Shown here piece by piece: positions 2,899-42,236 of a stretch of DNA of 64,000 nt (the stretch's first letter is position 1; each line of letters opens with the position of its first letter). The DNA is from Deltaproteobacteria bacterium (GTDB lineage Bacteria > Desulfobacterota > Binatia > UBA9968 > JAJDTQ01), in the NCBI GenBank assembly GCA_028818775.1, contig JAPPNE010000054.1, forward strand, positions 9,136 through 73,135, in the 5' to 3' direction. Below the pieces are notes generated by a model, which was given only the letters and a program-made list of their open reading frames with translations, was not told the origin of the DNA and searched no databases. Position numbers and translations under genes: made by a program.

Positions 2899-3950
2899 CC
2901 ACCTCAGGCAAATCGCTCGCGGAACTCGCCGAGCTCGTCGGCGGACGGGTGGCCGGTGACGCGGACGTGACCATCCAGAGGGTGTCTTCCATAGAGGACG
3001 CCGGCCCGGACGACATCACTTTTCTGGCCCATCCGCGCTACCGGGCGCATCTGGCCGCGTGCAACGCCGGCGCTGTCATCGTGGCCCACGATCTGCGCGC
3101 GGACGTCGCGCTCAACTTTCTTCACGTCGACGATCCCCACCGGGCGTTCGCGCAAATACACGCGTTGTTCAATCCCCCGGCCGTGCACGCGCCGGGCGTC
3201 AGCCCCTTGGCCGCCGTCGATCCGTCCGCCGTCGTGGAACCGGGCGCCAGCCTCTACCCTCAATGCTGCGTGGGAAAAGACGCCCGGATCGGCGAGAGGA
3301 CGGTGCTCATGCCTGGCGTGTCCGTCGGCGCCGGAGCGCGGCTCGGCCGTGATTGCGTGCTGCATCCCAACGTGACGGTGGCGGATGGCTGCCAGGTCGG
3401 CGACGGCGTCGTTCTTCACGCGGGCGTGGTCATCGGCAGCGACGGCTTCGGCTACGCGGGCCACGGTCCGGGGCGTCTCAAGGTGCCGCAGGCCGGGATC
3501 GTGGAGATCGGCGATCACGTCGAGATCGGCGCCAACACCGCCATCGATCGGGCCACCATCGGCAGCACCCGCATAGGGGCGGGCACGAAGATCGATAATC
3601 TCGTGCAGATAGGGCACAATGTGGTGGTCGGCGAACGGTGCCTGATCATCGCCCAGACGGGCATTGCCGGCAGCGCGGTGGTGGGTGACGACGTGGTGCT
3701 GGCCGGACAGGTGGGCGTCAAGGACCACGTGGAGATCGGCTCCCGGTCGGTGATCGGGCCCAAGAGCACCATCGTGCAATCGGTCCCGCCCGGCTCCGTG
3801 CTCTCCGGCCTGATCTCGGCCGCGCCGCACAAGGAGTGGCTCAGGGTGATACGGCTCCTGCCGAAACTGCCCGCGCTTTGGCGGCGGGTGGCCGAGATCG
3901 AGAGAGCCTTGCGCCTGACGGCCTCTACGGAGGACAAGGAGGTCCGGTAG
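2895..3950 (+). CDS. lpxD: UDP-3-O-acylglucosamine N-acyltransferase
   Basis: Hexapeptide repeats, IGSDGFGY, KIDNLVQIGHN. Confidence 0.97.
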   Translation: MTTSGKSLAELAELVGGRVAGDADVTIQRVSSIEDAGPDDITFLAHPRYRAHLAACNAGAVIVAHDLRADVALNFLHVDDPHRAFAQIHALFNPPAVHAPGVSPLAAVDPSAVVEPGASLYPQCCVGKDARIGERTVLMPGVSVGAGARLGRDCVLHPNVTVADGCQVGDGVVLHAGVVIGSDGFGYAGHGPGRLKVPQAGIVEIGDHVEIGANTAIDRATIGSTRIGAGTKIDNLVQIGHNVVVGERCLIIAQTGIAGSAVVGDDVVLAGQVGVKDHVEIGSRSVIGPKSTIVQSVPPGSVLSGLISAAPHKEWLRVIRLLPKLPALWRRVAEIERALRLTASTEDKEVR

Positions 3951-32502: not shown

Positions 32503-32526
32503 TTCCCTAATTCCGGTTCCTTTACC

Positions 32527-32553
32527 CGTCATTCCCGCGAAAGCGGGAATCCA
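32527..32553 (+). repeat. CGTC-tagged REP-like palindrome (ATTCCC-N8-GGGAAT core)
   Basis: CGTCATTCCCGCGAAAGCGGGAATCCA in the E1 alpha/beta gap. Confidence 0.8.
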
Positions 32554-39377: not shown

Positions 39378-40883
39378 TCAGCTCCCCTTGATGAAATCCG
39401 CCACTCGCTCGCCGATCATCATGCAGGTGACGTTGGTGTTTGCATGGGTGACCGTGGGCATGATGGAGGCGTCGGCCACCCGCAGGTTGTCGATGCCGTG
39501 AACCCGTAGCTGCTCGTCCACCACGGTCATGGGGTCGGACGCGGGACCCATGAGACAGGTGCCGGCGGCGTGGTGGTAGCTGTCGAGCGTCGAGCGCGCC
39601 CACCGGCCCCAGTCCTCGCCGCGCTTGGGTTGAATCGGCGGACCGTAGAACTCGGGCATGTCGCCGGTCTGGGTCAGCAAGTCCAGGAACTCCATGGTCG
39701 CCACCACGGCCGCGACATCGTCCGGATGCTCCAGCATCCGTGCGTCCACCCCCGGCAACTCATGCGGGTCCGCGCTCTGGAGGAAGACCCGGCCGCGGTT
39801 GCGCTGCTCCAGCAACGCCGCGGAGATGTTCACCGTCCGGCCCACACCCTCCAGCACGGTGGGCGGCCGCATGAAGACGTGGAAATCGCCGGTCTCCCGT
39901 GACGGGTCGCTCTTGGTGATCAGCCGGAAGGGCGGCACCACCCAGTCCACGTCGAAGCCGCCGCGCCCCTCGAAGCTCATGTGCAGCATGGCGTGGTCCT
40001 GGTAGTTCTCGCCCACGCCGGGGCGGTCGTGGAGCACCTCGATGCCGTGCCGCTCCAGCTCCGCCGCCGGTCCGATGCCGGAGAGCATCATGATGTGGGG
40101 GCTGTGGAACGCGCCGGCGGTAAGCACCACCTCGGTGCCCGCCGCGGTGTGCCGCTGTCCGTCCTTCTCGTAGTTCACCCCCGTGACGCGGTTGCCCGAC
40201 AGGGAAAGCGAGACCACCGGAGCCTCGGCGATGACGGTGAGATTGGGCCGGCCCCGGGCTGCCTCCAGGTATGCAACCGTGGTGGACTGCCGCATGCCGT
40301 CCTTGATGTTGTAGGGGGACGTGCAAAGTCCCCAGGGATTGGGGTCGTTGACGTCGCCTTGCGGCAGCCCGAGTTCGCGGGCCGCATCCATGAACACCTG
40401 CACCGCCCTGGGGACCTCCTGGCCGAAGAGGTAGTGTCGCTCGAAGTAGAGCGGCCCGCCGTGACCGTGATCGGAGCTGTCCGGGTTGTCCTGGTCGTTC
40501 TCGAGGCGTTTCAGGACCGGCAGGACGTGCTCCCACGACCACGAAGGGTTCCCGGCCGCGGCCCACGCGTCCATGTCCGCCTTGATGGGGCGGATGACCG
40601 ACATCACGTTCACCGAGGAACCGCCGCCCATGATCTTCCCGGCCAGGGAATAGAAGGTGCTGCCGTCGACCCTGCGTTCCGAGGGATACATGTTGATGTA
40701 GGGCGTCTCCAGCAGCAGCCGCACCCTCCCGGCCGCCTGCGCCACCAACTCCGGGATGGGCAGCGGATCGGGACCCGCTTCCAGCAGGAGCACCTTCCGG
40801 TTCGGATCCTCCGAAAGACGCGCCGCCGCCGCACAGCCCGCCGAGCCGCCGCCTACCAGAATCACATCGTATTCGTTTGCCAT
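39378..40883 (-). CDS. GMC family oxidoreductase (choline dehydrogenase-like)
   Basis: VGGGSAG, LLEAG, GGGSSVN, GENYQDH, HAAGTC, RVADASIMP, ANTN. Confidence 0.92.
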   Translation of the reverse strand: MANEYDVILVGGGSAGCAAAARLSEDPNRKVLLLEAGPDPLPIPELVAQAAGRVRLLLETPYINMYPSERRVDGSTFYSLAGKIMGGGSSVNVMSVIRPIKADMDAWAAAGNPSWSWEHVLPVLKRLENDQDNPDSSDHGHGGPLYFERHYLFGQEVPRAVQVFMDAARELGLPQGDVNDPNPWGLCTSPYNIKDGMRQSTTVAYLEAARGRPNLTVIAEAPVVSLSLSGNRVTGVNYEKDGQRHTAAGTEVVLTAGAFHSPHIMMLSGIGPAAELERHGIEVLHDRPGVGENYQDHAMLHMSFEGRGGFDVDWVVPPFRLITKSDPSRETGDFHVFMRPPTVLEGVGRTVNISAALLEQRNRGRVFLQSADPHELPGVDARMLEHPDDVAAVVATMEFLDLLTQTGDMPEFYGPPIQPKRGEDWGRWARSTLDSYHHAAGTCLMGPASDPMTVVDEQLRVHGIDNLRVADASIMPTVTHANTNVTCMMIGERVADFIKGS

Positions 40884-40972
40884 GACATTCCCTTCCCGTT
40901 CCGCGCCGTTGATCCCTTTCCGTATCAACTCCGCGGTTGCCGTTCAACAACACGTGTTGCGCGTCTTTTTTC

Positions 40973-41001
40973 TTGACACCGGCTCGCGGCGGACCTAGAC
41001 T
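40973..41001 (+). promoter_or_regulatory. Strong sigma70 promoter of candidate ncRNA
   Basis: T-tract, TTGACA (40973-40978), 17 bp, TAGACT (40996-41001). Confidence 0.8.
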
Positions 41002-41006
41002 CGTAT

Positions 41007-41377
41007 TGTCTCGTTCGCGAACGGACAAGAGCCCGAAACCCCGCGCGACGGTTGCGGGCTCGGTCATCAAACCACCAGGAGGTGTCAGATGACGAAAAAC
41101 AATCCGCCCGACACGGGACGCCCGCTCTAAGCGGGCAGGCGGGGTTTCCCCGGAGGTTTGCCGAAAACGGCTACCGGCTGACCGTCCCGACTCAGGTGTT
41201 GGACAACACGGCTTTAACGCCGTAATACGTGAGGGGAAAAGGCAGCACAGGACAGCAATCCCGGAAGCCCGGCAACGGCAACCCGCGGCAGGGGAGCCGG
41301 ACAAGAATGATACGCATCGACCGGCGTGGATGAACGCCGGGAGCGGGCTCTCTCGGGAGGGGAGCCCGCTTTTCTTT
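41007..41377 (+). ncRNA. Candidate ~370-nt structured RNA of unassigned family
   Basis: Bounded by the promoter and an intrinsic terminator, no credible long CDS, many hairpins and a long-range helical domain. Family could not be assigned by eye. Confidence 0.6.
41342..41377 (+). terminator. Intrinsic terminator
   Basis: AGCGGGCTC / GAGCCCGCT 9-bp perfect stem followed by TTTCTTT. Confidence 0.85.
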
Positions 41378-41412
41378 GTGAGGTGGGTTCAGGACTTCAA
41401 CGAGGCAGAAAC

Positions 41413-41754
41413 ATGGCGCAAGAGGCAACCGAAATCTCCGGCTATCACGCCCACGTCTACTACGACCCCGACACCAGGGAGGTGGCGGGGCGTGTCCGCG
41501 AAGGGCTTGGCGACCGTTTCGACGTCGTCCTGGGCCGCTGGCACGACGTCCCCGTGGGTCCCCATCCCAAGGCCATGTACCAGGTCGCCTTCGCCCCCGG
41601 CGAGTTCGCCAGGGTGGTCCCGTGGCTCTTGCTCAACCGCGAAGGCCTCGACATCCTGATCCACCCCAGCACCGGCGAGCACGTGGGCGACCACCGTGAC
41701 AGGTCGCTGTGGCTGGGAACACGGCTGCCGCTGCGGCTGGGGAAGCTGAGCTGA
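41413..41754 (+). CDS. DOPA 4,5-dioxygenase family protein
   Basis: GYHAHVYY, VGPHPKAMYQ, WLLLNREGLDILIHP, DH...WLG. Confidence 0.9.
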   Translation: MAQEATEISGYHAHVYYDPDTREVAGRVREGLGDRFDVVLGRWHDVPVGPHPKAMYQVAFAPGEFARVVPWLLLNREGLDILIHPSTGEHVGDHRDRSLWLGTRLPLRLGKLS

Positions 41755-41771
41755 ACGAAGAGAACGCGCGG

Positions 41772-42236
41772 CTACTGGAGTCCGCCGTCCCGCACCCGCA
41801 GCTTCGCTTCGATGAATTCCTTGTGCGAGACGCCGATGAGGTTGGCGATCTTGCGGACCAGGTACTCCTCGTGCTTGTCGACGTTGGCGTCGGCGTAGGC
41901 GACGGCCCAGAGGTACTCCACGACCTTCCGCTTCTGCTCCTCGGAGAAGCCGGTCTTGATGAGCGAGGTGAACTGGTAGTGGTCGATGGCGTCGTCGGCC
42001 TCCGCCTCGGCCAGTTCCATCAACTGGCGGGTTTCCTCTTCGGTGAGATCGAATTTGTCCCGGAGGGCGCCGAGAACGACGGCGCGCTCGCCCTCCGTGC
42101 ACTCGACGTCGGTGCGCATCATCTCCACGAGAAGGGCGCCGGTGGCCACCTGGAGCCGGTGCTGGTCCGACTCGCGCACATCGCGGTGCCCTGGGTCGAT
42201 CTGGTTCACGAAGAACCGCTGGATGGCCGCGAGCAT
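41772..42236 (-). CDS. TerB family protein
   Basis: ATGALLVEMMRTD, DHYQFTSLI, WAVAYAD...HEEYLVRKIANLIGV. Confidence 0.88.
   Translation of the reverse strand: MLAAIQRFFVNQIDPGHRDVRESDQHRLQVATGALLVEMMRTDVECTEGERAVVLGALRDKFDLTEEETRQLMELAEAEADDAIDHYQFTSLIKTGFSEEQKRKVVEYLWAVAYADANVDKHEEYLVRKIANLIGVSHKEFIEAKLRVRDGGLQ

Follow-up and report, generated by a model that had tools for sequence, protein, structure and literature searches.

A clade-restricted structured RNA gene with a Pro-Pro mini-ORF upstream of a DOPA 4,5-dioxygenase family gene in Candidatus Binatia

The window (the whole stretch of 64,000 nucleotides that was analysed) possesses a gap of 529 bp between a GMC oxidoreductase gene (39381-40883, minus strand) and a gene of the DOPA 4,5-dioxygenase family (41413-41754, plus strand, 113 aa; Pfam PF08883, E = 4e-32), and this gap holds an undescribed, clade-restricted RNA gene of a subclade of Candidatus Binatia, here a sponge symbiont. 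Transcription from a near-consensus sigma-70 promoter yields a primary RNA of ~370 nt which ends at a strong intrinsic terminator, and a minority of the transcripts run through this terminator into the DOPA-family gene. Covariation among homologs supports a conserved fold comprising the hairpins P1 to P4, a branched core of 156 nt, the hairpin P6 and the terminator. Within it lies a very short ORF, led by a Shine-Dalgarno (SD) sequence, whose two adjacent proline codons stand at a fixed distance from P4. The preferred reading, to which a probability of about 45% is given, is that of a stable structured RNA with a pause mini-ORF which doubles as a terminator-limited leader. The original prediction, made from the letters of the window, had offered four identities for the element, namely a Csr-type sponge, a divergent 6S-like RNA, a large attenuator for the DOPA-dioxygenase gene or a new class. 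The last is the best fit of the four. No Rfam family matches the RNA, its helices covary and it forms a discrete abundant transcript.

Distribution and genomic context of the element

The nearest relatives of the DOPA-family protein are found in MAGs labelled Candidatus Binatia and the DNA runs with the window sequence are sponge metagenomes, so the organism is considered to be a sponge-associated member of the Binatia. A comparison with Rfam 15, one of the checks that the original prediction had proposed, gave no match at the gathering score over the whole window and none even at E ≤ 10 over 40850-41450, while ARAGORN found no tmRNA or tRNA. Transfer-messenger RNA combines a tRNA-like domain with a tag ORF lacking an SD and an AUG. 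It was rejected as an identity on the absence of ARAGORN and Rfam matches and on the SD and AUG that the mini-ORF possesses here. The literature search retrieved no publication describing this RNA and no description of RNA biology in the Binatia, and the terms non-coding, ncRNA and small RNA are absent from the sponge metatranscriptome paper PMC12879404.

The element recurs in 20 further contigs, these being Binatia-labelled MAGs and unlabelled metagenome contigs, and its copies form two divergent subgroups, A and B. All 20 further copies sit directly upstream of a DOPA-dioxygenase-family gene; relatives were gathered mainly through the flanking DOPA-family protein, and gene order there is generally conserved. 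In ten GTDB species representatives, whose DOPA-family proteins are 78-88% identical, the element is directly upstream and 70-86% identical. Searching JGI metagenomes with 22 bases of the RNA core as a pattern located three more loci, with a DOPA-family gene behind the element in all three; the pattern was absent from viral contigs. Protein-cluster look-ups added L084, L085, and L096. Group B (L086, L088, L089, and L093) is much more divergent, with nhmmer E-values of 1e-10 to 1e-23 and scores of 23-48 bits with the covariance model of the core (R1), compared to 144-186 bits for group A. No nhmmer match was obtained with 70 other DOPA-family loci, other Binatia included, nor any match in the 11 that were scanned with R1, and with this model the scores of L090 and L091 did not exceed 12.6 bits (E about 0.05). 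Between the window and its relatives, identity is 0.55-0.82 at the four-fold degenerate sites of the flanking genes and 0.69-0.87 over the RNA. The RNA is a mosaic, with ~40% of its columns invariant among 11 species beside freely varying loops and linkers.

Neighbours of the RNA include, besides the GMC oxidoreductase, an AraC-type regulator, TerB and NUDIX, and the gene order GMC, RNA, DOPA, TerB, NUDIX, TldD is mostly kept among the homolog loci. Some genomes have a HigBA pair or an MFS transporter in the upstream position, with the RNA still next to the DOPA gene. Given the generally conserved gene order, this linkage may be merely historical.

A number of side observations concern the same loci. 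L085 has a second, truncated copy of the RNA (3021-3209; P4 and core only, 150 bits), which forms a fusion with the end of a higA-like gene and is without promoter, mini-ORF, P6, and terminator. A called HigBA pair also lies just upstream of the RNA promoter of L085, and the stretch immediately preceding this promoter in L009, L010, and L085 resembles the same higA-like gene end, which suggests rearrangements by a mobile toxin-antitoxin cassette. At L092 (1027-1390), where the DOPA-family protein is 79% identical and a promoter-like TCGACA-17-TAGATT is kept together with the motif on the GMC side, an unrelated leader of lower GC content and ~230 nt replaces the RNA. There is a scaffold gap of 10 N at this position, and the element may have been replaced or lost. 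The GMC-side motif lies in the window at 40915-40972 on the minus strand, upstream of the RNA promoter, and is conserved (GTTGCCGTTCAACAA, TACCCATAnCAAGT in relatives). Its minus-strand reading of TTGAAC, ~17 nt and TATGGG is probably that of a divergent GMC oxidoreductase promoter, placed back to back with that of the RNA. When the window is compared with L004, L005, and L006, the GMC oxidoreductase protein is 96-97% identical (four-fold-site identity 0.72-0.82). Divergence is far greater for the adjacent RNA (identity 0.73-0.74) and for the DOPA gene (0.55-0.62 at four-fold sites), which hints at an intergenic recombination boundary.

Promoter, terminator and fold of the RNA

The promoter of the original prediction is present on the plus strand at 40973-41001, with TTGACA at 40973-78, a 17-nt spacer and TAGACT at 40996-41001. 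A T-rich tract precedes the -35 hexamer and transcription is predicted to start at ~41008. This is the sole promoter-like site in 1.5 kb (mean of 0.1 in shuffled sequences), and in all homologs the -35 hexamer is invariant with the -10 hexamer being TAGACT, TAGAAT or TAAAAT. The predicted terminator with its U tract (41341-41377, plus strand) is likewise present in the minimum free energy (MFE) fold, though a simple terminator scan did not list it. It possesses a stem of 12-13 bp (41343-41369) followed by UUUUCUUU (41370-77), is kept in all homologs and has 98.5% of its stem cells paired. The plus strand has an MFE of -174.9 kcal/mol (z = -4.86), which none of 100 shuffles equalled, compared to z = -3.23 for the minus strand; many of the pairs are U-G, so the fold fits only the plus strand. 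That the region has no long CDS, as had been claimed, also held in the relatives. A frame of 57 aa (41052-41225) is closed early by stops in seven of the ten relatives checked, and longer ORFs on either strand are closed or frame-shifted.

All features of the fold lie on the plus strand and follow in the order P1, P2, P3, mini-ORF with P4, the H1-H4 stack with its junction (H5/H6, Pa, Pb, and Pc), linker, P6, and terminator. The four hairpins noted from the sequence, namely P1, P2, P3, and P6, are all in the MFE fold. P1 (41007-41027) is the 5′-terminal hairpin, with 94% of its cells paired, and P2 (41029-41061) has a tip of variable length, six of its nine pairs being compensatory in a structure-blind MAFFT alignment. 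P3 (41063-41093) has the stem GUCAUC/GAUGAC and holds the SD in its loop region and the AUG in its 3′ arm; as this stem does not vary within group A, covariation speaks neither for nor against it. The branched core (41143-41298), described by R1, begins with the stacked helices H1 (41143-51/41291-98), H2 (41155-63/41276-83), and H3/H4 (41169-76/41262-69), which lead to a junction. From this arise the arm H5/H6 (41177-88/41234-46), carrying the hairpins Pa (41196-41209) and Pb (41210-21), and the side hairpin Pc (41250-61). An A-rich single-stranded linker of variable length and sequence (41299-41320) separates the core from P6 (41321-41340), a hairpin with one compensatory pair which abuts the terminator. 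The original prediction had described the region of the core as a long-range rod; its four pairings are in the MFE fold, but the rod is not unbranched, as the stacked helices lead to a three-way junction.

Covariation, which the original prediction had named as a test, supports this fold. The structure-blind MAFFT alignment, made with 11 full-length copies, has 96.3% of its cells paired and compensatory changes at 12 of the 93 pairs, compared to 38-49% of cells pairing when the partners were slid by 1-3 columns. For the core, an R1-based alignment of 20 copies, including group B, has 94.8% of cells paired and 25 compensatory pairs out of 48, though an alignment fitted to a covariance model leans towards structure. 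None of 500 shuffles scored as high, and slid controls gave 30-51% paired cells and 7-12 compensatory pairs. Invariant across both groups are P4, the segment GUCCC.A paired with GGGGACA, and the stem of Pa, while the nucleotides of the junction differ strongly between subgroup A and subgroup B.

These features bear on the possibility of a protein-sequestering RNA, either of the 6S/Ms1 type with RNA polymerase as its target or of the CsrB/RsmZ type with CsrA. Such a function would suit the very high abundance described below and the long, largely helical domain. The RNA is also co-transcribed with a downstream gene, as is E. coli 6S RNA with ygfA, and it shares with the ssrS-ygfA transcript the character of a highly abundant stable RNA with possible 3′ processing. 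However, nothing in Rfam of the 6S, CsrB, RsmY or RsmZ families matches even at E ≤ 10, the mini-ORF here is led by an SD, and the covariation-supported three-way junctions of the core are not the rod with one central bubble expected for 6S RNA. There are two or three GGA-in-loop sites at most, and one of them, CACC-AGGA-GGTG, is the SD site of a conserved mini-ORF which the original prediction had missed. The pattern of GGA in loops is not conserved among the homologs either, as the loop of Pa is GGAY in group A only (group B loops being CGA, UGAA, and AAG) and that of P6 is mostly UGAUGA. A CsrA sponge was rejected for the lack of conserved GGA loops and 6S RNA for its branched topology and lack of a model match, leaving the sequestering of a protein as a very unlikely role.

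The mini-ORF and its distance to P4

The mini-ORF MTKNNPPDTGRPL* occupies 41089-41130 on the plus strand, with its ATG at 41089, Pro-Pro codons at 41104-41109 and TAA at 41128. Its SD AGGAGGTG (RNA: AGGAGGUG) is located at 41077-84, 6 nt before the ATG. P4 (41120-41136, plus strand; GCCCGC/GCGGGC) has 99% of its cells paired and begins exactly 10 nt past the Pro-Pro codons. The whole arrangement, this being SD, AUG, exactly 12 nt, CCR-CCN, exactly 10 nt and the GCCYG arm of P4, is found in 21 of 21 homologs, with the prolines always at codons 6 and 7. Substitutions in their codons are confined to the third base (CCA in 12 and CCG in 9 for the first; CCC in 15, CCG in 3, and CCT in 3 for the second). 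In contrast, the four codons before them are wholly different between group A (T-K/T/Q-x-x) and group B (G-E/D-x-S), and the only peptide residues conserved across both subgroups are M1, Pro6, and Pro7. Peptide length is 9-13 aa, with the exception of two homologs with 16 and 30 aa. In most of group A the frame closes with a UGA inside the loop of P4 (12 aa). The group B stop codon precedes P4, separated from it by a single base (9 aa), and three copies closely related to that of the window have a later stop (13, 16, and 30 aa). Selection appears to have acted on translation as far as Pro-Pro and on the distance to P4, but not on the peptide as a product.

Another possibility is that the transcript is the mRNA of a very small abundant peptide (9-13 aa, with a core of xSPPx), whose structured 3′ part is a stabiliser and whose leaky terminator precedes the enzyme gene, on the model of mccA, which encodes the microcin C precursor, and of other strongly transcribed genes for precursor peptides. 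The perfect SD, the conserved AUG and Pro-Pro, and the far higher level of the transcript than of the gene beyond its leaky terminator would agree with this. It is nevertheless highly improbable, as nothing of the peptide except M1, Pro6, and Pro7 is conserved and its length and C-terminus vary (9, 12, 13, 16, and 30 aa). In addition, a covarying core of 156 nt with invariant blocks far exceeds the needs of a stabiliser, and no modification or export genes were found among the neighbouring genes. Dual-function sRNAs, examples being RNAIII/hld, SgrS/SgrT, SR1/SR1P, and Spot 42/SpfP, are similar in having their own promoter and terminator, an abundant discrete transcript and a small SD-led ORF. 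They differ in that the ORF here has 9-13 codons of which only Pro-Pro is conserved, and in that the RNA is also the leader of the next gene. In the microcin C operon, a terminator lies between mccA and mccB, and the short transcript varies in amount with ribosome binding. The likeness to this system is a tiny ORF and, behind it, a terminator which part of the transcription passes to reach enzyme genes; unlike mccA, a conserved branched domain of 156 nt lies between ORF and terminator here and the peptide product is not conserved.

The preferred reading, that of a stable RNA with a pause mini-ORF, is supported by the identical spacing of SD, AUG, Pro-Pro, and P4 in 21 of 21 homologs despite the differing codons between AUG and Pro-Pro. 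Given the usual extent of a ribosome footprint, a pause at Pro-Pro would place the front of the ribosome at the base of P4, and a ribosome which continued to the stop codon would melt this hairpin. In this reading, a ribosome would load at the perfect SD, translate five codons and pause at the invariant Pro-Pro, where the fixed 10 nt would bring it up against P4. Its engagement would stabilise the RNA and/or set the folding of the downstream part. The branched core would be the functional part of the stable RNA, providing a binding surface for a protein or a small ligand, and the terminator would let only a small share of the promoter's output, possibly a conditional one, reach the downstream enzyme gene. 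In principle, the SD and AUG could be conserved for reasons at the RNA level. The mini-ORF abuts or overlaps P4, and ~240 nt of stable structure lie between P4 and the terminator; no chain of alternative pairings was found leading from the mini-ORF and P4 to the terminator.

It is also observed that in group B (L086, L089, and L093) an invariant GAUCCUCCAACGGG occurs near the 5′ end, its CCUCC being complementary to the SD of the mini-ORF. The group A counterpart, GCCUC or GUCUC inside P1, is weaker. The CCUCC of GAUCCUCCAACGGG may be an anti-SD element of group B, judging from this complementarity.

Transcript abundance and read-through into the DOPA-family gene

The discrete transcript expected by the original prediction is seen in four sponge metatranscriptome assemblies as RNA-only contigs of 299-340 nt spanning 41019-41351, with depths of 7-61 compared to ~2-4 where contigs represent the coding sequence downstream. 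In three runs, the 634-bp bin with the RNA has depths of 17703, 1485, and 185, most other bins over 19 kb being at 0-21. The exceptions are the bin at 41510-42143, which has most of the DOPA gene (6-171), and a repeat near 32523-32553 (99-1285). Depending on the run, RNA contig depths are ~10-1000 times those of neighbouring genes, ratios that are rough as the data are assembled contigs whose depths are contig means with a ceiling of 25000. Contig depth rises from 0 to a high level at ~41010, in agreement with the predicted start. With regard to the second exception, the intergenic palindromic repeat at 32523-32553 (CGTCATTCCCGCGAAAGCGGGAATCC), to which the summed depth of 99-1285 in the RNA runs belongs, has many different flanks and looks like a REP- or MITE-like dispersed hairpin common to many loci or organisms.

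The abundant species has no firmly placed 3′ end; it stops in or before the linker in two runs (X34 and X36) and reaches the terminator in four. A contig of X36 with a depth of 3751 ends at ~41313. In X34, the summed depth is >16000 at 41264-71, ~700-800 at 41272-41303, 444 at 41304-11, and 85.6 from 41312 onwards. The very abundant fraction of these two runs therefore ends at or before the linker (~41272-41313), without P6 and the terminator, and this shortening could be due to 3′ processing or library bias. Contigs which cross the terminator into the gene are present in X33 (904 nt) and X34 (666 nt, depth 85.6), so read-through transcripts exist. In X34 and X36, the RNA is more than 100-fold above the contigs of the gene; one contig of X33 spans both, so that this run gives no separate ratio. 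For 13 of the 17 homologs listed, 28-48 nt separate the terminator stem from the ATG of the DOPA gene, which leaves no room for a separate gene promoter. The spacer of three of the four group B copies is longer (70 to ~290 nt), and here it is possible that the DOPA gene has a promoter of its own.

An attenuator for the DOPA-dioxygenase gene, as one option of the original prediction had it, is favoured by the read-through contigs and the lack of promoter room in most homologs, but the conserved antiterminator of such a device was not found. RNAduplex partners of the 5′ arm of the terminator in 19 homologs gave no consistent site, the best one varying among P2, P4, H1, and the SD region from sequence to sequence. 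P2 and H1 (including the H1 3′ strand) covary within themselves and not with the terminator. A constitutive or leaky terminator is favoured over a classic switch on account of this absence. P4 and the terminator share GCGGGC/GCCCGC, invariant in both, and strand exchange between them, which is sterically possible once the core closes, is a matter of speculation.

In its strict form, the RNA would be a purely cis-acting riboswitch or attenuator, with the core as an aptamer (e.g., for a catechol or an aromatic amino-acid derivative) or with Pro-Pro as a translation sensor, and with the abundant RNA as a terminated by-product. Promoter, leader ORF, structured domain, terminator, and gene form a classic leader layout, and a different upstream neighbour does not part the RNA from the gene behind it. 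Further points for this are the read-through contigs, the short spacers and the >100-fold excess of RNA over gene contigs in X34 and X36. However, besides the lack of an antiterminator or alternative terminator pairing, a variable linker and the independent P6 lie between core and terminator. A level of up to ~1000 times neighbouring mRNAs is unusual for the terminated leader of a small accessory gene, the junction nucleotides diverge between groups A and B unlike those of typical aptamer cores, and other DOPA-family loci, other Binatia included, lack the element. A purely cis role is a serious rival to the preferred reading, though the less probable of the two.

The leaders of mgtA and mgtCBR in Salmonella (mgtL and mgtP; Rfam Mg_sensor RF01056) use proline codons to couple ribosome progress to folding and transcription. 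They resemble the RNA in being long structured 5′ leaders (~260-300 nt) with a short ORF containing proline codons. They differ in that there is no sequence or structure match and that termination is Rho-dependent there and intrinsic here. In addition, no alternative stem-loops linking ORF and terminator were found here, the RNA accumulates massively, and both the phylum and the gene are different. These leaders, the dual-function sRNAs, ssrS-ygfA, and mccA are the closest functional analogies, none being a family match.

A wider proposal, quite unlikely as it stands, is that the RNA represents a new class of ribosome-engaging regulatory RNAs. Its module of SD, AUG, Pro-Pro, and hairpin would read the capacity for Pro-Pro elongation (EF-P activity or proline supply), and the core, which may bind a protein or an aromatic metabolite, would couple this to the fate of the RNA and to the expression of the DOPA-type dioxygenase.

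With its complex fold and no Rfam counterpart, the RNA joins a short list of abundant orphan structured RNAs. Those known include IMES-1 to IMES-4, GOLLD, and the raiA motif, with which it shares a complex covarying fold, a narrow range, and very high environmental expression. It has no Rfam match to any of them and, to our knowledge, none of them has a conserved SD-led mini-ORF. The Binatia (Binatota) are uncultured, and in these sponge-symbiont transcriptomes the depth of the RNA bin reaches ~10^4 compared to ~10 for neighbouring genes. Annotation of the Binatia MAGs concerned misses a major transcript, from whose promoter the adjacent DOPA-dioxygenase-family gene is expressed. The geometry of SD, AUG, 12 nt, Pro-Pro, 10 nt, and hairpin provides a concrete hypothesis, namely that ribosome pausing may be programmed on an RNA that is not an mRNA.
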